Source: Patescibacteria group bacterium UBA918 (lineage in GTDB: Bacteria; Patescibacteriota; Minisyncoccia; Phycocordibacterales; UBA918). From it: DNA of 64,000 bases. Within the stretch, counting starts at the first letter, position 1; every line of letters begins with the position of its first letter. The stretch is taken from assembly GCA_002293845.1 (NCBI GenBank), contig DBEA01000010.1:565-64564 (forward strand), read 5' to 3'. The translations under genes were made by a program, and so were the position numbers. Shown piece by piece: positions 14,992 through 61,158 of the stretch. The notes beneath the pieces are model-generated. The model was not told where the DNA came from. It saw only the letters and a list, made by a program, of their open reading frames with translations, and did no database searches.

Positions 14992-15208
14992 TAACCAGAG
15001 TTCTGTTCAAAACTACCGCTAGTCTAAAGATTGGCAAAATTTGAGTAGAAATTTTCGAAAACTATTAAGCCATAGACTGCTCTGGTGAAATAGTTTTTGT
15101 AAATTTATGCCGAATTTTGGCAATCGACGACAGCGGAACTACCTATAGATGAATATGTTAGAATTAAATTATTAATTAGTGTTAGTTTTGAACTGAACTC
15201 TACTTCAT

Positions 15209-20150: not shown

Positions 20151-20741
20151 ATGGAAAGAAACACTATCGTCGTCGGCTTAGTCGCTCTGCTTCTCGGTTT
20201 GGGCACCGGTTACCTCGTTTGGAGCACTAGCGTGCCCGCCGAGGATGGCTTCGGACATCGGATGTCCGATGGTTCAATGATGGATCAAGACATCGATCGG
20301 CACTTTATCGTTCAGATGATCCCGCATCATGAAGGCGCGATCGCGATGGCCAAGATCGCGCTCGAGCGTTCGAAGCGGCCGGAGATCTTGTCCTTAGCAA
20401 ACGGCATCATCGAAGCGCAGGAAAAAGAGAACGGCGACATGCGCGCTTGGTACCGCTCTTGGTTCGGTGCCACTCCTCCGGAGGGAGGCATGGGGATGAT
20501 GCATATGGGCGGGATGGAAGGAGACACGAACGTGCTACAAAACGTGTCTGAAGCGCATTTCGACCGCGAATTCATCGAACAAATGATCCCGCATCATGAG
20601 ATGGCCATAATGATGGCCGAGATGCTTCGGGCTTCCACCGTCCGCGACGAGATGAAGGAATTGGCGAACAACATCATCACGTCGCAGTCGCGAGAGATCG
20701 AGATGATGCGCGGTTGGCTCACTAGTTGGTACGGCCAATAA
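20151..20741 (+). CDS. DUF305 (CopM-like) periplasmic metal-binding protein with a Met-rich segment
   Basis: Two copies of FIxQMIPHHExAIxMA and MGMMHMGGMEG. The start is moved to ATG 20151 (MERNTIVVGLV signal peptide). Confidence 0.7.
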   Translation: MERNTIVVGLVALLLGLGTGYLVWSTSVPAEDGFGHRMSDGSMMDQDIDRHFIVQMIPHHEGAIAMAKIALERSKRPEILSLANGIIEAQEKENGDMRAWYRSWFGATPPEGGMGMMHMGGMEGDTNVLQNVSEAHFDREFIEQMIPHHEMAIMMAEMLRASTVRDEMKELANNIITSQSREIEMMRGWLTSWYGQ

Positions 20742-45988: not shown

Positions 45989-46126
45989 AACTCCCAAAAT
46001 GAGCGAATTTACATTCGCTTCGGCCGGGCCGCTCGTCACCGTATATTAAATACGGCTCCATCGCGGCCCAACCTCCAGCGAACTCAACTTCATCTCATTT
46101 AGAAAGTTTCAAACACCTACGACAAG

Positions 46127-46158
46127 AAAATCCGCGGGCCGAAGGCCCGCGGGTTTTC
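46127..46158 (+). terminator. Intrinsic terminator CCGCGGGCC-gaa-GGCCCGCGG TTTT
   Basis: Follows groEL. Confidence 0.75.
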
Positions 46159-46184: not shown

Positions 46185-46622
46185 ATGAAAACACGTTTCC
46201 CGTACGTTTGCGCCGTCTTTTTGCTACTGATTGAAGACGGAAAGATATTGTTGCAGAGACGGTTTCAAACAGGTCATGAAGATGGCAATTATGGAGTGCC
46301 TTCTGGACACATGGATGGTGGCGAAACTCCAAGAGAGGCTTGCGCCCGAGAGTGTGCCGAAGAAATTGGCATCAAAATCCGACCTGAAGATTTAACTATG
46401 GTTCATACAATGTATCGATCTAGCGAGAACGAACGCGTTGATTTCTGTATGACCGCCAGTCGTTATGAAGGCGAGGTACAGAACATGGAAACACACAAAT
46501 GTGACGACTTACAGTGGTTTCCGCTCGACGCATTGCCAGACAATACGATTGATTACGTACGTCAAGCGATTACGGCCTATCAGAAGGGCGTGACATATTC
46601 GGAATATAAACCAGCTGACTAG
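46185..46622 (+). CDS. NUDIX hydrolase
   Basis: Nudix box GETPREACARECAEEIG. TATACT 6 nt upstream of the ATG. Confidence 0.8.
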   Translation: MKTRFPYVCAVFLLLIEDGKILLQRRFQTGHEDGNYGVPSGHMDGGETPREACARECAEEIGIKIRPEDLTMVHTMYRSSENERVDFCMTASRYEGEVQNMETHKCDDLQWFPLDALPDNTIDYVRQAITAYQKGVTYSEYKPAD

Positions 46623-46851
46623 CTGAAAGGTGTGACGGTTGACATTTTCTCCCGTTTCCCGTAGTATGGCCCCGTTCCGAACTGTTGCCCGAAAGCCCCT
46701 GGCAGGGCCTTCGGCGCGGTACACTCTCTCGTCGGGAACCTGTGCGGGGTAGGCCGTTACCTTCTTCCACACAGGGTTCTGACAAAGACCCTATATAAGT
46801 CACCGCCTGCACCAATTTTTGCGGATTTGGATGCAGAACGCGGCGGACGAG

Positions 46852-46900
46852 GAAAATATGGCGAGCCGTATACCCATACGGTGAGCCATATTTTACCGAA
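46852..46900. repeat. Long imperfect hairpin X (GAAAATATGG-cgag-CCGTATaccCATACGG-tgag-CCATATTTTAC), 45 nt upstream of rpsS
   Basis: Shares the inner stem and internal loop with hairpin Y at 60864..60915; the outer stems differ but stay complementary. Confidence 0.6.
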
Positions 46901-46938
46901 GTCTAACAAAGTTATGTGCCAAATCCGCGTAAATTGAT

Positions 46939-50083: not shown

Positions 50084-50632
50084 ATGAAAACTCTAAAAGA
50101 AAAACTCAGCGGTGCCTTCGAGGCCTTGAAGTCGGATTTGGGCTATACCAATGTCATGCAGGCTCCTCGCTTGGAGAAGGTCGTCGTCTCGGTCGGCGTC
50201 GGCAAGATCGACGATAAGGCGAAGAAGGAAGCGATCTTCGAACGCTTGTCCCGTATCACCGGCCAGAAACCTTCCCCTCGACCGGCCAAGCAGTCGATCG
50301 CGTCCTTCAAGCTTCGTCAGGGCGACATCATCGGCTATCAGGTGACGCTTCGAGGCGAGCGCATGCATCACTTCCTCGACAAGCTGATCCACATCGCTCT
50401 CCCGCAGACTCGCGACTTCCGCGGACTCAAGACCACCGCCATCGATGAAATGGGTAACATCTCGCTGGGCATCAAGGAACATACCATTTTCCCGGAGACC
50501 GCCGACGAGGACATTCGCGACGTTTTCTCCCTCGCTATCACTTTGGTCACTACCGCCAAGAACAAGAAAGAGGCTGAGGCTTTTCTCCGCCACATCGGAC
50601 TTCCATTGCAGAAGGAGGAGGCTACTGTCTAA
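50084..50632 (+). CDS. rplE: 50S ribosomal protein L5
   Basis: Sequence and operon position. Confidence 0.9.
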   Translation: MKTLKEKLSGAFEALKSDLGYTNVMQAPRLEKVVVSVGVGKIDDKAKKEAIFERLSRITGQKPSPRPAKQSIASFKLRQGDIIGYQVTLRGERMHHFLDKLIHIALPQTRDFRGLKTTAIDEMGNISLGIKEHTIFPETADEDIRDVFSLAITLVTTAKNKKEAEAFLRHIGLPLQKEEATV

Positions 50633-50640
50633 ATTTTTTA

Positions 50641-50690
50641 CAGCAAAAGTAAAGCCGCCGGCCTATGGCCGGCGGCTTTACTTTTTGCTG
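50641..50690 (+). terminator. Strong intrinsic terminator inside the spc operon (AAAGTAAAGCCGCCGGCC-tat-GGCCGGCGGCTTTACTTTTT)
   Basis: 17-bp perfect stem plus T-run immediately after rplE. Confidence 0.75.
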
Positions 50691-50907
50691 AAATCTGGTA
50701 ATGTTGGCCTCGTTGTGGAGTGCTGTTAGATGCCTAAAAAGGCGGCGTTCCATAGGCCCGAAAGGGCTGTTTATAAGCAAAGCAGGTCGGCACATCTAGC
50801 CGATACCACTTTGAACCAGTTTACAGTTACAAGTTTTTAGTTTTCAGTGTCGTCGTTGGCGACCGTTTACTAAAAACTAAAAACTGACAACTAATAACCT
50901 AAACTGA

Positions 50908-51093
50908 ATGGCTCGAACATCGATCAAGGTTCGTGCTACTCGGACTCCGAAATATAAGAGTCGAGTGGTGCGTCGTTGCGTCCAGTGTGGCCGCAAACAC
51001 GGATACATGCGAGATTTCGATCTCTGCCGTATCTGTTTCCGCGAACATGCCCATGAGGGTTTGATACCGGGCGTTAAGAAGAGCAGCTGGTAA
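50908..51093 (+). CDS. rpsZ: 30S ribosomal protein S14 type Z (zinc-binding, 61 aa)
   Basis: [23 protein letters not shown]. Confidence 0.9.
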
Positions 51094-51099
51094 TAGAAA

Positions 51100-51215
51100 T
51101 CCCAAAATTGGCGCATATGCACGGGTTTCAGAAATTTCTCTCAGTCGCCGTAGGTTAGTCTACGTCTTCCTCGCGAAATTCCTTCCAACCCGCACATCTG
51201 CATTCAATTTTGAAA
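51100..51215 (+). repeat. Spc-operon intergenic repeat, copy 1 (~115 nt, about 90% identical to copy 2)
   Basis: ttggcgcatatgcacgggtttcagaaatttctctcagtcgccgtaggttagtctacgtcttcctcgcgaaattccttccaacccgcacatctgcattcaattttg. Confidence 0.8.
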
Positions 51216-51233
51216 TTCCTAATCAATTAATGT

Positions 51234-51620
51234 ATGGATACAATTGGAGATTTCATCATCCGGCTTAAGAACGCCGGGGCAGTGGGACACGAAGAAGTGT
51301 CGTTGCCGCACTCGAAGATCAAAGAAGCGATCGCCGAAAAGCTCGTCGCCGCCGGCTACCTGGCCTCAGCCCGAGTAGAAGGCAAGGACGTCAAAAAGAC
51401 GTTAGTGGTGTCCTTGCGTTACGACGCCGGCCGACACGCTATCGCCGACGTACAGCGCGTTTCAAAGCCCGGTCGAAGGCTTTATGCAAAGGTAGAGGAG
51501 ATTTATCCGGTAAAGTTCGGCAAGGGTCACCTGATCCTCTCGACTCCTAAAGGTATTTTGACCGACAAGGAGGCGAAGGCGGAAAAGGTGGGCGGCGAAC
51601 AGTTGTTTAAGATCTGGTAG
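51234..51620 (+). CDS. rpsH: 30S ribosomal protein S8
   Basis: MDTIGDFIIRLKNAG. Confidence 0.9.
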   Translation: MDTIGDFIIRLKNAGAVGHEEVSLPHSKIKEAIAEKLVAAGYLASARVEGKDVKKTLVVSLRYDAGRHAIADVQRVSKPGRRLYAKVEEIYPVKFGKGHLILSTPKGILTDKEAKAEKVGGEQLFKIW

Positions 51621-51624
51621 GCTT

Positions 51625-52158
51625 ATGTCACGACTTGGAAAACAACCGATCACTTTGCCCGCGGGCGTCGAGGCGACCTTTGTCGATGGAGTTTTGACCA
51701 TCAAGAAGGGTAACAACGTCCTCACTCGCGAGATGAAGGATGATGTGGAGGTTAAGGTGGATGGCACTACCATTACCTTGGCACCGCAGGCTGGTAGCGA
51801 ACTCGCCGCCGCTTTGTGGGGCACTTACGCCGCTCACGTTCGTAACATGATCGCGGGGGTGACCGAGGGCTTTAAGAAGATTCTCGAGATCGAGGGCGTC
51901 GGCTATCGCGCCGAACTGAAAGGCAACAAGCTCGTCTTGTTGATGGGTTACTCGCATCCGGTGGAGATGGAAGTGCCGACCGGCATCACCGTCGTCGTCG
52001 AGAAGGGAGTCGTCACTATTAGCGGCATCGACAAAGAGGCGGTCGGACAGTTCGCCGCCAACGTGCGCAAGGTGAAGGAACCGGAGCCTTACAAGGGCAA
52101 AGGTATTCGATATCAGGGCGAGTATATTATCAGAAAGCAGGGCAAGAAAGCCGTTTAA
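51625..52158 (+). CDS. rplF: 50S ribosomal protein L6
   Basis: MSRLGKQPITLPAGVE. Confidence 0.9.
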   Translation: MSRLGKQPITLPAGVEATFVDGVLTIKKGNNVLTREMKDDVEVKVDGTTITLAPQAGSELAAALWGTYAAHVRNMIAGVTEGFKKILEIEGVGYRAELKGNKLVLLMGYSHPVEMEVPTGITVVVEKGVVTISGIDKEAVGQFAANVRKVKEPEPYKGKGIRYQGEYIIRKQGKKAV

Positions 52159-52164
52159 AAATCC

Positions 52165-52281
52165 AAAAGTTGACGCATATGCACGGGTTTCAAAAATTTC
52201 TCTCGGTCGCCGTAGGTCAATCTACGTCTTCCTCGCGAAATTTCTTCCAACCCGTACATCTGCATTCAATTTTGTCTTTTT
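52165..52281 (+). repeat. Spc-operon intergenic repeat, copy 2
   Basis: ttgacgcatatgcacgggtttcaaaaatttctctcggtcgccgtaggtcaatctacgtcttcctcgcgaaatttcttccaacccgtacatctgcattcaattttg. Confidence 0.8.
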
Positions 52282-52304
52282 AAATCACTGTCTTAAACAA
52301 AGTT

Positions 52305-52661
52305 ATGGCAACTACAAAAACCCAACTCAAAAAGGCTCGCCGCACTTCGCGACACGATCGCATCCGCGCGCGCGTGATCGGGACGGCCGAAAAACCTCGC
52401 TTGGCGGTGTTCAAGAGCAATGTCGCTCTTTATGCTCAGCTCATAGATGATGCCTCCGGAAACACTCTGGCAGCAGCGGACACTCGTAAACAAAAAGGGG
52501 CTAACCTGATCGAACGAGCGACGGCGTTAGGTGCGGAAATGGCCAAAGAAGCCAAAAGTAAAGGAATCGAGGCGATCGTGTTCGATCGCGGAGGTTTCCG
52601 TTATCAGGGCGCCGTAGCCGCTTTGGCCGATGGCGCCCGCGAAGGAGGGCTCAAATTTTAA
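52305..52661 (+). CDS. rplR: 50S ribosomal protein L18
   Basis: Sequence and operon position. Confidence 0.9.
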   Translation: MATTKTQLKKARRTSRHDRIRARVIGTAEKPRLAVFKSNVALYAQLIDDASGNTLAAADTRKQKGANLIERATALGAEMAKEAKSKGIEAIVFDRGGFRYQGAVAALADGAREGGLKF

Positions 52662-52711
52662 CTCCGGTTAAAGTTCGTAACACTACTTACTAATTTCTAT
52701 TCACTAAAAAC

Positions 52712-55215: not shown

Positions 55216-55794
55216 GTGGATGTGAAAAACGCTGACACGCGGTATCAAAGCATCATCTTCATGGGAAAGACCGGGTGCGGAAAAGGTACTCAAGCACACC
55301 GCTTGGCGGCAGACTTCGGCTACGATCTTTTCTCTACCGGCGACCGCGTGCGCGCGTTAAGCAACGAGGACACTTCCCTCGGTCGCCATATCAGGGATAT
55401 CCACATGAGCGGCTGGGTGCCTGAATGGCTGGCTAGTTATCTTTTTGCCAAGGCAATTTTAGAGGAGGACATCGATCATGGTTTGGTCTTCGAGAGCGTG
55501 GCCAGGAAGCCGGAAGAGGCTAAGAAACTCCATGAGATGCATCACATGCTCAATCGTTCCTACGTGGTTCTGCACTTGGATGCCGCGGACGAGGTGGTGA
55601 TCGATCGAATGCGCAAACGCCAGCGCGACGCTTCCGATTCTGAAGAGAACATCAAGAAACGGTTACAGGCTTTTTATGACGAAACCGTCCGTTCACTCGA
55701 GTTTTTCCGAGAGCAGGGCAAGGTCGTCGATATCGATGCCACCAGATCACCGGACGAAGTGTATCAAGAAGTGTTAAAAGCTATCGCCAAGTAA
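55216..55794 (+). CDS. Adenylate-kinase-family NMP kinase, divergent paralog (LID/NMP-binding motifs altered)
   Basis: P-loop GKTGCGKGTQ, STGDRVR. ESVARKP replaces the canonical DGFPRT. Confidence 0.65.
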   Translation: MDVKNADTRYQSIIFMGKTGCGKGTQAHRLAADFGYDLFSTGDRVRALSNEDTSLGRHIRDIHMSGWVPEWLASYLFAKAILEEDIDHGLVFESVARKPEEAKKLHEMHHMLNRSYVVLHLDAADEVVIDRMRKRQRDASDSEENIKKRLQAFYDETVRSLEFFREQGKVVDIDATRSPDEVYQEVLKAIAK

Positions 55795-55795
55795 C

Positions 55796-56392
55796 ATGCG
55801 ACCTACGACAGTCATATTCATCGGTCCCCAAGGAAGCGGTAAGGGGACTCAGATTGAGAAACTCGATCAAGTACTGCGCGGAAAGGACCCCACTAGACGC
55901 GTGGTCGACATCCAGACCGGTCGACGCTTTAGGGCCATGGCCGCTTCCGGCGAGGGTTACACGGAAAAACACGTGCAAGCGACACTGAACACCGGTGTGC
56001 TACAGCCCCTGTTTCTTTCGACCGTGCTGTGGGGCGATGCTATGCGCACTCATCTCGACAACGAGTGTCACTTGCTCATCGACGGTTTCCCGCGGGTTAT
56101 AGACGAAGCCAAGGTTTTGGAGTCGGCCCTGAGGTTCTACGACCGCAATCCGGTCGACATCATTTACCTTGATACCCCGGAGGAGGTGGTGCGTGGTCGT
56201 ATGACGAGCCGCGCTCGACCCGATGACACCAAAGAGTCCATAGAAGAACGACTTAGATGGTACCGTGAGGAGACCTTGCCGGTAGTGGAGTATTACCGCG
56301 TCAGACCGAACGCGCATGTTCATGATATAGACGGCACCGTCTCCATAGACGATGTGCACCGTGCTATTTTGAACGCTCTTAATTTGGCTTAA
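55796..56392 (+). CDS. adk: Adenylate kinase (short-LID type)
   Basis: GPQGSGKGTQ, LIDGFPR, classic position after secY. Confidence 0.85.
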   Translation: MRPTTVIFIGPQGSGKGTQIEKLDQVLRGKDPTRRVVDIQTGRRFRAMAASGEGYTEKHVQATLNTGVLQPLFLSTVLWGDAMRTHLDNECHLLIDGFPRVIDEAKVLESALRFYDRNPVDIIYLDTPEEVVRGRMTSRARPDDTKESIEERLRWYREETLPVVEYYRVRPNAHVHDIDGTVSIDDVHRAILNALNLA

Positions 56393-60819: not shown

Positions 60820-60863
60820 AAATTAGTAAGTAGAAATTAGAAAGTAGTAAGTATGGGCAAAAC

Positions 60864-60915
60864 TTTCACAGTTATGGAAATTCGTAGGGTTGGAGGAAAG
60901 TTTGTGAGCGAGCCG
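60864..60915. repeat. Long imperfect hairpin Y (GGAAAGTTTGT-gagcgag-CCGTATacagaCATACGG-tgacga-ACAAAATTTCC) in the rpmI-rplT spacer
   Basis: Paralog of hairpin X at 46852..46900. Confidence 0.6.
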
Positions 60916-60960
60916 TATACAGACATACGGTGACGAACAAAATTTCCGAAACCCAAGAAT

Positions 60961-61158
60961 TTACTTAGCTGTGGGAGTTTTGGGAAGGAAACGACGGGTA
61001 ATGCGCTTGCTGTAATTCAATACCTGAGTGCGCTTGCGACGAAGACGTTGCTGGCCGCTCTGGCGGGCGTTGAAGTGGTTCTGTCCGGGCTTCCTGGCCA
61101 CCAGCTTACCGTTCTTCGTCACCTTGATTCTCTTGGTATAACTTTTATTTGTCTTCAT
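60961..61158 (-). CDS. rpmI: 50S ribosomal protein L35
   Basis: MKTNKSYTKRIKVTKNGKLVARKPGQNHF. The start is moved to the internal Met; the track start is 61200. Confidence 0.8.
   Translation of the reverse strand: MKTNKSYTKRIKVTKNGKLVARKPGQNHFNARQSGQQRLRRKRTQVLNYSKRITRRFLPKTPTAK

Follow-up and report, generated by a model that had tools for sequence, protein, structure and literature searches.

The ERIC (enterobacterial repetitive intergenic consensus, or IRU) elements are imperfect palindromes of ~127 bp found in transcribed intergenic regions and at gene 3′ ends, which are occasionally intragenic and vary in copy number between relatives, and their central inverted repeat is said to be the conserved part. 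The REP/BIME sequences are extragenic palindromes that closely follow stop codons, frequently inside operons, and for which mRNA-stabilizing roles have been reported; a REP is reportedly also able to act in translation when it lies within ~15 nt of the stop codon; REPINs are ~100-nt hairpins in which the ends are the conserved part. Membership of a further family, the RPEs, is restricted to Rickettsia. RPEs (Rickettsia palindromic elements) are palindromic repeats of ~100–150 bp in reduced genomes. They are able to enter essential genes in-frame and to undergo translation there, and ERIC copies located at the 3′ ends of genes change mRNA levels (PMC10969869). REP units measure 20–40 bp and carry a GTAG or CGTC head (PMC3733652). 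In the present study we analysed a 64000-nt stretch of Patescibacteria group bacterium UBA918 (contig DBEA01000010.1, positions 565–64564 of the forward strand), hereafter called the window, in which a hairpin of ~115–125 nt occurs five times in the spacers of ribosomal-protein (r-protein) operons. The best-supported view is that this element is a palindromic repeat of the ERIC/RPE/REP kind and new for the Patescibacteria.

Like ERIC, the element is an imperfect palindrome of ~120 nt that is most conserved at its apex, lies at gene 3′ ends, varies between relatives and is occasionally intragenic. Unlike ERIC, with which it shares neither sequence similarity nor host phylum, it is anchored at stop codons in one orientation and has a consistent strand asymmetry; we know of no report of such anchoring, orientation or asymmetry for ERIC. 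The likeness to RPE is functional only: one in-frame copy adds ~40 residues to isoleucyl-tRNA synthetase (IleRS) and few stop codons occur on the sense strand, but most copies are located outside open reading frames (ORFs), at a stop codon or past it, and the hosts are Patescibacteria, which sets them apart from RPE as described. With REP/BIME it has in common a palindrome just downstream of a stop codon, often inside an operon, yet it differs from REP and from the REPIN–RAYT system in its ~120-nt length, its conserved apex, the lack of a conserved GTAG head and the absence of a RAYT among its neighbours. MIRUs (mycobacterial interspersed repetitive units) are reportedly intercistronic within operons and in one orientation relative to transcription, their ends overlapping the stop and start codons on either side, and the present element resembles them in all of this as far as the stop codon is concerned; however, MIRUs are direct tandem repeats of 40–100 bp, not palindromes. 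Finally, integron attC sites are imperfect hairpins of 57–141 nt, conserved in structure, that directly follow an ORF in fixed orientation and are active as the folded strand complementary to that ORF. The element is likewise an imperfect hairpin with structure conserved over sequence, fixed in orientation after an ORF and better folded on the complementary strand, but it has no R′′/R′ boxes (RYYYAAC…GTTRRRY) at its base and no integrase nearby, and it occurs as single copies after core housekeeping genes.

Patescibacteria make up a large share of bacterial diversity and have tiny, tightly packed genomes, and the control of their gene expression is almost unknown. It is striking that hairpins of 120 nt should sit on the stop codons of their most expressed genes, surviving in the most conserved bacterial operon and inside an aminoacyl-tRNA synthetase, and that turnover between relatives should be combined with selection on resident copies. 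We propose, with moderate confidence, that the element is a non-autonomous duplicating palindrome of the ERIC/RPE/REP kind, which would be co-transcribed with its host genes and kept as an intercistronic or 3′-untranslated-region (3′-UTR) RNA hairpin. Such a family offers a handle on mRNA processing and stabilization in Patescibacteria and on the persistence of selfish DNA in minimal genomes, and its covariance model flags spacers of this type that might otherwise be mis-annotated as regulatory leaders, small RNAs or gene fragments; the element also explains some split or 'partial' gene calls.

Five copies of the element in r-protein operons

The sequence-only reading of this DNA had described an element of ~115 nt that occurs twice, at ~90% identity, on either side of the rpsH–rplF pair. 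This description holds for the two copies concerned, A and B (Table 1), which form an ungapped direct repeat with 88% identity over 132 nt in a repeat search and 91.6% over 119 nt by BLAST, but the window holds five copies (A–E) rather than two, all of them in spacers of r-protein operons. The additional copies were recognized with two covariance models. R1 was built on the gene-sense strand from A, B and two relatives; it underestimated the structure and was replaced by R2, which was built from 50 sequences on the better-folding strand. R2 gave five matches in the window, with E values from 1e-12 to 1e-21, and nothing further at that strength.

Copy A scores 118 bits with R1 (51103–51218) and 70 bits with R2 (51099–51219, minus strand), with a fold energy of −57.7 kcal/mol on the minus strand compared with −32.7 kcal/mol on the plus strand. 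Copy B, with 62 bits for R2 (52161–52281), gives −49.3 and −34.5 kcal/mol on the same two strands, and in both A and B the z-scores are more extreme on the better-folding minus strand, i.e. the one complementary to the genes. Copy C is 74% identical to A by BLAST (R1, 87.6 bits; R2, 58 bits, plus strand), and in its apical stem, CCGTAT/ATACGG, the differences from A and B compensate each other. Copy D reaches 73.5 bits with R1 and 77 bits with R2 (−65.8 kcal/mol on the minus strand, −39.1 on the plus strand) and is followed by a separate terminator-like hairpin at 46132–46152. Copy E has the highest R2 score, 93.9 bits on the plus strand, and only 29 bits with R1 on the minus strand; its better-folding strand (−60.6 kcal/mol, plus, compared with −46.5, minus) is here the mRNA strand.

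The cores of A and B differ by ~10 substitutions, of which four are in stems and the remainder, apart from two in the apical loop, in the outer base; the earlier impression that the differences cluster in a hairpin loop is thus mistaken. All four stem changes exchange a G·U for a Watson–Crick pair on the minus strand, and pairing is kept on that strand only. The internal palindromes GCATATGC and AGAAATTTCT pointed out previously do exist, but both are mere parts of the 5′ arm of one hairpin of ~115–125 nt.

Copies D and E, in inverted orientation, bracket a NUDIX hydrolase gene (46185–46622) between rplB and rpsS. At the same junction relatives carry msrA plus a small ORF (L211), unrelated DNA (L208) or nothing (L210), and because this cargo differs among relatives the junction is an insertion hot spot. 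Another hairpin of ~120 nt, at 15016–15136 in a 217-nt spacer, folds better on the plus strand (−51.8 compared with −33.1 kcal/mol), has an apex unlike that of the family and matches R2 marginally (E=0.59); it could have diverged very far from the family or belong to a second one of hairpins.

Structure and distribution of the family

From this genome our analysis covered 64 kb and from relatives pieces of 20 kb, and the census of the family was taken in 723 kb of metagenome loci. By folding, each copy is one long imperfect hairpin of ~115–125 nt. The apical stem–loop, CCGTA-loop-TACGG, is conserved, as are mismatches beside the apex, while the stems vary in sequence and keep their complementarity; conservation is highest at the apex and lowest at the termini, and the 5′ side of the base is rich in A and its 3′ side in U, the lower stem being AU-rich. 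The apex pattern TTCGG..TCACCGTA..TACGGCTC was found in more than 116 metagenome stretches among the matches listed, nearly all of them hairpins of 110–140 nt, and gave no match in 2.9 million viral contigs, by which a phage origin is ruled out. In the fetched loci R2 gave 110 matches, which correspond to 100 distinct copies. In the R2 alignment of these 100, 87.8% of cells hold standard pairs, compared with 61% in shuffles and 34–46% when the partners are slid. Changes on both sides occur in 24 of the 26 pairs in this alignment, which is fitted to the model, and compensatory changes are already seen in 23 of the 26 in an unfitted MAFFT alignment. On the better-folding strand a G·U pair adjoins the apical stem in 87 of 100 copies and a U·G pair lies near the base in 60.

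Among the hosts are Kaiserbacteria-like Paceibacteria and also Saccharibacteria, Nanosynbacter for example, and in relatives the multi-copy, non-coding element of 115–125 nt occurs two to five times per 20-kb syntenic region. An Rfam search, at gathering thresholds and permissively at E values up to 10, gave no relevant match for the window copies, the rplB–rpsS region or canonical members, so that no Rfam family matches the element. Full-text literature searches and Rfam likewise yielded no description of interspersed repeats in the candidate phyla radiation (CPR)/Patescibacteria or Saccharibacteria, and this family of ~120-base hairpin-forming repeats is apparently undescribed.

In a Kaiserbacteria metagenome-assembled genome, a region of ~150 nt upstream of rpsZ (L013:5233–5379) has nothing but the outer stem (TTTGACGCAT...CTGCATTCAAATG) in common with A and B and differs in its interior, which suggests replacement of the core between conserved outer arms.

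Position and orientation relative to host genes

We define the sense strand of a copy as the mRNA strand of its upstream gene. Among 43 copies with a credible upstream ORF, the 5′ end of the hairpin coincides with the first base of the stop codon or precedes it in 30, and in 12 more it is inside the stop codon or ≤3 nt past it. At secY, whose product ends in ...REY, the 3′ flank is complementary even to the native last codons: CGTGAGTATTAA pairs with TAGCTCACG in one genome, and in a second the secY end GAGAGAGTATTAA is complemented by TAGCTCCCTCAA. An ORF of at least 80 codons ends at the sense 5′ base in 65 of the 100 distinct copies, compared with 11 in the opposite orientation, which served as a control; seven lie in-frame within an open frame on the sense strand. 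The GC skew is positive across the whole window, yet copies occur in both absolute orientations (A, B and D compared with C and E), and orientation therefore follows the gene and not replication. This rules out an orientation coupled to replication, as in elements derived from IS200/IS605 (PATE).

The upstream genes are mostly housekeeping or translation-related and encode SecY (five copies), KhpA (three), EF-Tu, RNR, MreB, a PilB-type ATPase, S7, S9, S10, L2, L31, SSB, NDK, NusB and LepA, and the downstream genes are a miscellany without a transposase. At secY and rplB the stop codon is followed first by the element and then by a canonical GC-rich terminator distinct from it; the element is therefore part of the 3′-UTR, not the terminator itself. 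It abuts the upstream stop codon rather than the downstream start, to which the distance from the hairpin ranges from 8 to >300 nt, a spread that rules out translational coupling through a fixed distance to the next start. One copy (L092:2249–2365) lies ~230 nt upstream of, and in the same orientation as, a 23S rRNA gene (L092:1–2020, minus strand) and is possibly inside the rRNA operon transcript.

A large subfamily is found in-frame inside the isoleucyl-tRNA synthetase gene (ileS) of Saccharibacteria, where it adds ~38–40 residues to IleRS in what is a linker by comparison with solved IleRS structures. Three Saccharibacteria IleRS homologues (P0125, P0131 and P0192) carry other inserts of 35–50 residues at the same linker, which therefore accepts insertions repeatedly. 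One element-hosting IleRS (L110:924–4475, Saccharibacteria) also has a NUDIX-like stretch (..GALLVDANGKLVVQKRDDKPG..GGTSHEGESPAETLRRELQEELEL..), and many database entries for such IleRS proteins are 'partial' or split.

Gain, loss and constraint among relatives

Close relatives were fetched through their homologues of ribosomal protein L6. The nearest, L207, has 89% DNA identity over 3.6 kb and carries B without A; its S14–S8 junction reads TGGTAA-TTCTTAAGT-ATGG, and the 9-nt spacer, which is the same in L208 and L209, is the ancestral state. Both A and B are missing from L208, L209 and L211, which have copies elsewhere: L208 after secY, after rpsS (the S19–L22 junction is filled in this relative only) and near rplB, L209 a single one after a SIMPL gene, and L211 after rplB and in the L5–S14 gap. 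In L210 the element follows rplC, rplF, secY and ndk and is also found between rpmI and rplT. Orthologues of B are present at the same junction in L207 (98.6% identical), L210 and L011; A is a recent arrival and B is older. The in-frame ileS copy is likewise present in some Saccharibacteria and absent from homologues at 64–80% identity. Pairs within one genome are alike (A and B, 89%; two L208 copies, 88%), compared with 50–57% for the secY copies of L208 and L210 and 69% for B and its L210 counterpart. The patchy occupancy and the within-genome likeness show that the element duplicates and that gene junctions of close relatives acquire and lose it.

Once in place, copies diverge slowly. The 98.6% identity of spacer B with L207 compares with 69–79% at third codon positions of the flanking genes, and the secY-adjacent copies of L094, L132, L118 and L011 are 68–81% identical, compared with 43–50% at secY third positions. 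In the B orthologue of L210 the apical stem is kept by a double change, from CCGTAG/CTACGG to CCTTAG/CTAAGG. The slow divergence relative to synonymous sites, together with this compensatory change, argues that the hairpin, where resident, is probably maintained in place by selection.

With its 115–125 nt and five copies in 64 kb, the element has the small size (<~300 bp), non-coding nature and multiple copies of a MITE (a miniature transposable element with inverted repeats), and it is also polymorphic for presence, A being missing from L207, L208 and L209 with the 9-nt spacer intact. The conserved terminal inverted repeats of a parent insertion sequence (IS) are absent, the termini being the least conserved part, and neither an IS nor a transposase adjoins the copies. 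The earlier proposal of a MITE that had inserted twice is therefore right in so far as this is a multi-copy palindromic family whose positions differ among relatives, with A missing from L207, but a simple double insertion does not account for five copies in the window plus at least 100 distinct ones in other Patescibacteria, anchored at stop codons in one orientation, with residents apparently under purifying selection. The same reading had taken copies scattered randomly genome-wide as the mark of a pure selfish repeat. Copies are indeed scattered, but not at random.

Strand asymmetry

The better-folding antisense strand is purine-rich, with G exceeding C in 50 of 50 copies. The conserved mismatches are G·U and purine–purine on this strand, with tandem G·A-type mismatches, and A·C and pyrimidine–pyrimidine on the mRNA strand; in a strand-symmetric alignment the wobble ratio is weaker, at 1.6:1. 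Known deamination biases would yield the opposite strand skew. Stop triplets number 1.95 per element on the sense strand compared with 4.12 on the other, and a stop-poor sense strand fits a tolerance of translation into the element. The asymmetry may reflect a stage as single-stranded DNA or antisense RNA, selection on the composition of the mRNA strand, or the survivorship of that orientation which places the weaker hairpin in the mRNA. A small peptide encoded on the antisense strand was considered and rejected, as a Shine–Dalgarno sequence with an ATG is present only in copy D and is not conserved.

Alternative explanations

In the reading that we favour, the element would be co-transcribed with the host operon and, once resident, its hairpin would be kept folded through a role as an intercistronic or 3′-UTR RNA hairpin. 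It might shape mRNA stability as a barrier or a site of processing, or might hold a stop codon and the next start close together with the untranslated spacer structured, and so serve the hand-over between adjacent cistrons. The mRNA would carry the weaker, pyrimidine-rich, stop-codon-poor strand, and the complementary strand, better by ~13 kcal/mol, may serve when the element is copied. Several observations weigh against this reading. The better fold is that of the antisense strand in 46 of 46 copies, with a mean advantage of 13.4 kcal/mol, and this strand holds 118 G·U compared with 49 A·C combinations when the two conserved wobble pairs are excluded, a 2.4-fold excess; this advantage is awkward for a function purely at the mRNA level. 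No transposase, RAYT or integrase is present among 73 ORFs flanking the copies, and the apex rather than the termini is conserved, unlike in classical MITEs. TA or TAA recurs at both boundaries, with TAA...TAA or TAA...TAG around many copies (e.g. at secY in L208 and L011), but TA is self-complementary and such flanks are indistinguishable from an extension of the palindrome. In addition, the strong conservation in situ argues against a merely selfish repeat, and that of spacer B could partly reflect generally conserved gene-junction regions: its low-divergence tract runs ~120 nt into rplR, and other gene junctions are conserved too.

Were the hairpin no more than a recognition site for mobilizing machinery, with residents as neutral passengers, the patchy occupancy among close relatives, the greater likeness of copies within a genome than at the same site elsewhere, the in-frame insertion of one subfamily in ileS and the TA or TAA at both boundaries (inseparable, as stated, from hairpin extension) would all be expected. 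Such a purely selfish, MITE-like repeat nevertheless seems unlikely: residents are far more conserved than synonymous sites (98.6% compared with ~70%, and 68–81% compared with 43–50%), orthologues keep their pairing through compensatory changes, as in L210, copies are enriched in a single orientation at the stop codons of translation-related operons, and no parent IS or transposase is found among the flanking ORFs. We regard as rather doubtful, too, that the functional strand is the antisense one, whether as a single-stranded DNA hairpin that is a structure-specific site of recombination or mobilization, comparable to the attC bottom strands of integrons or the hairpins of HUH enzymes, or as an RNA by which antisense transcription is halted or marked where highly expressed genes have their 3′ border. 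The uniformly better fold and more extreme z-scores, the two conserved wobble pairs and tandem G·A-type mismatches, the wobble excess, the four A/B stem differences that pair only there and a skew opposite to that predicted by known mutation biases all favour it. On the other hand, the next gene begins 9–18 nt past the hairpin in A and B, which leaves no room for an antisense promoter, and none was detected there; orientation is not linked to replication direction, unlike in IS200/IS605; attC R boxes are lacking and no integrase, RAYT or Y1 transposase is nearby; and selection for a G-poor, stop-codon-poor sense strand would also produce the asymmetry. A broader version, to which we give tentative and limited credence, is that the copies form a distinct class of stop-codon-anchored structures across the Patescibacteria, selected in the form of the antisense strand and with a recognition protein of their own. 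This class could provide a single-stranded DNA hairpin for a structure-specific copying or recombination system, or a device coupling translation termination, mRNA 3′-end formation and protection against antisense transcription at highly expressed genes, and the protein would bind the apex with its conserved G·U and tandem purine mismatches.

Two regulatory explanations offered by the sequence-only reading fail specific tests, namely chance-level hexamers, diverse hosts and separate terminators. That the copies are internal promoters, attenuators or intrinsic terminators, dividing the spc operon into separately controlled units, is improbable. Copy B does contain TTGACG-16-AAAAAT, the base of the hairpin (A-rich 5′, U-rich 3′) resembles a bidirectional terminator, and the operon is already split after rplE and rplB. 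However, the promoter-like spacing is one of five regional matches where 6.1 are expected by chance, and the hexamers are not conserved in A, C, D, the orthologues or other family members. The stem of ~50 bp with its AU-rich lower part is poor for termination and is not the short GC-rich stem with a U tract that ends a unit as an intrinsic terminator; at operon ends, after secY and rplB, the element precedes a separate canonical terminator, and termination inside the operon needs downstream promoters, for which tails of 9–27 nt leave no room. Least credible of all is a duplicated autoregulatory site, i.e. an rRNA mimic to which S8, L18 or another r-protein would bind and so control how the downstream cistrons are translated. 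All five window copies are in r-protein operons, about half of the upstream genes elsewhere are in translation-related operons and the conserved apical stem–loop could be a protein site, but the same element follows secY, tuf, ndk, mreB and RNR, pilB-like, SIMPL and ABC genes and lies inside ileS, and this diversity of hosts is too great for an r-protein mimic. At the same junctions, moreover, the element is missing from close relatives, its place is next to the upstream stop rather than the downstream start, and no r-protein leader in Rfam matches it even at E values up to 10.

The surrounding r-protein cluster

The features of the window discussed here are collected in Table 1. The spc operon was expected to be contiguous, and in related genomes the S14–S8 and L6–L18 spacers are indeed usually 0–36 nt, but the L5–S14 gap is large clade-wide, at 100–4000 nt in nearly all relatives, with genes inside some gaps. 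The break after rplE is a lineage-wide feature, separate from the hairpin elements. Both the terminator noted earlier on the 3′ side of rplE and the long spacer ahead of rpsZ are confirmed. The terminator hairpin measures 49 nt, with 23 pairs, a 3-nt loop and one bulge, and is followed by UGAAAUCUGG; the 3′ arm of its stem is U-rich (CUUUACUUUUUGCUG). It has only generic hairpin matches in the E-value mode of Rfam and does not match R2. No L30 gene is present between rpsE and rplO, as judged from the window ORFs and the Pfam labels of the identical contig L001.

Table 1 Coordinates of hairpin copies, genes and other features in the 64000-nt window
Feature	Coordinates	Strand	Position or basis
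Copy A	51094–51225	+ (strand of flanking genes)	Fills the spacer from the rpsZ stop (51093) to the rpsH start (51234)
Copy B	52156–52287	+	Between the rplF stop (52158) and the rplR start (52305); repeat pair, R1, R2
Copy C	60860–60977	−	Between rpmI (stop 60961) and rplT (start 60819), both minus-strand genes
Copy D	45991–46109	+	Directly 3′ of the rplB stop codon (45988)
Copy E	46815–46931	−	Inverted compared with the other four; 8 nt ahead of the rpsS start (46939)
rplE	50084–50632	+	ORF in the window
Intrinsic-terminator-like hairpin after rplE	50641–50689	+	Fold; canonical type, outside the element family
rplE–rpsZ spacer	50633–50907	+	275 nt; break in the spc cluster common to related genomes
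rpsZ	50908–51093	+	ORF; Pfam label from identical contig L001
rpsH	51234–51620	+	ORF; Pfam label from identical contig L001
rplF	51625–52158	+	ORF; Pfam label from identical contig L001
rplR	52305–52661	+	ORF; Pfam label from identical contig L001

Within the rplE–rpsZ spacer, close upstream of rpsZ, a hairpin is formed by AGTTTTT/AAAAACT repeats (50830–50893). Upstream of rpsS, in the region 46639–46812, a strong promoter-like TTGACA-17-TAGTAT (46639–46667) is followed by a GC-rich leader of ~140 nt, which is kept in L208 and L210. At E values up to 1 this leader belongs to no Rfam family, and the first 138 nt past the NUDIX stop (46623–46760), promoter-like site included, fold no better than shuffles. 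Genes of the window are without obvious Shine–Dalgarno sequences, and the motif ACTTACTAATTTCTA is found a short way upstream of the rpsE and rplT starts (~52683–52700 and, on the minus strand, 60825–60845). A 64-nt direct repeat with 73% identity (20293–20356 and 20560–20623, 267 nt apart) is probably an internal duplication in a coding region, and two neighbouring adenylate kinase paralogues (55216–55794 and 55796–56392) follow secY.

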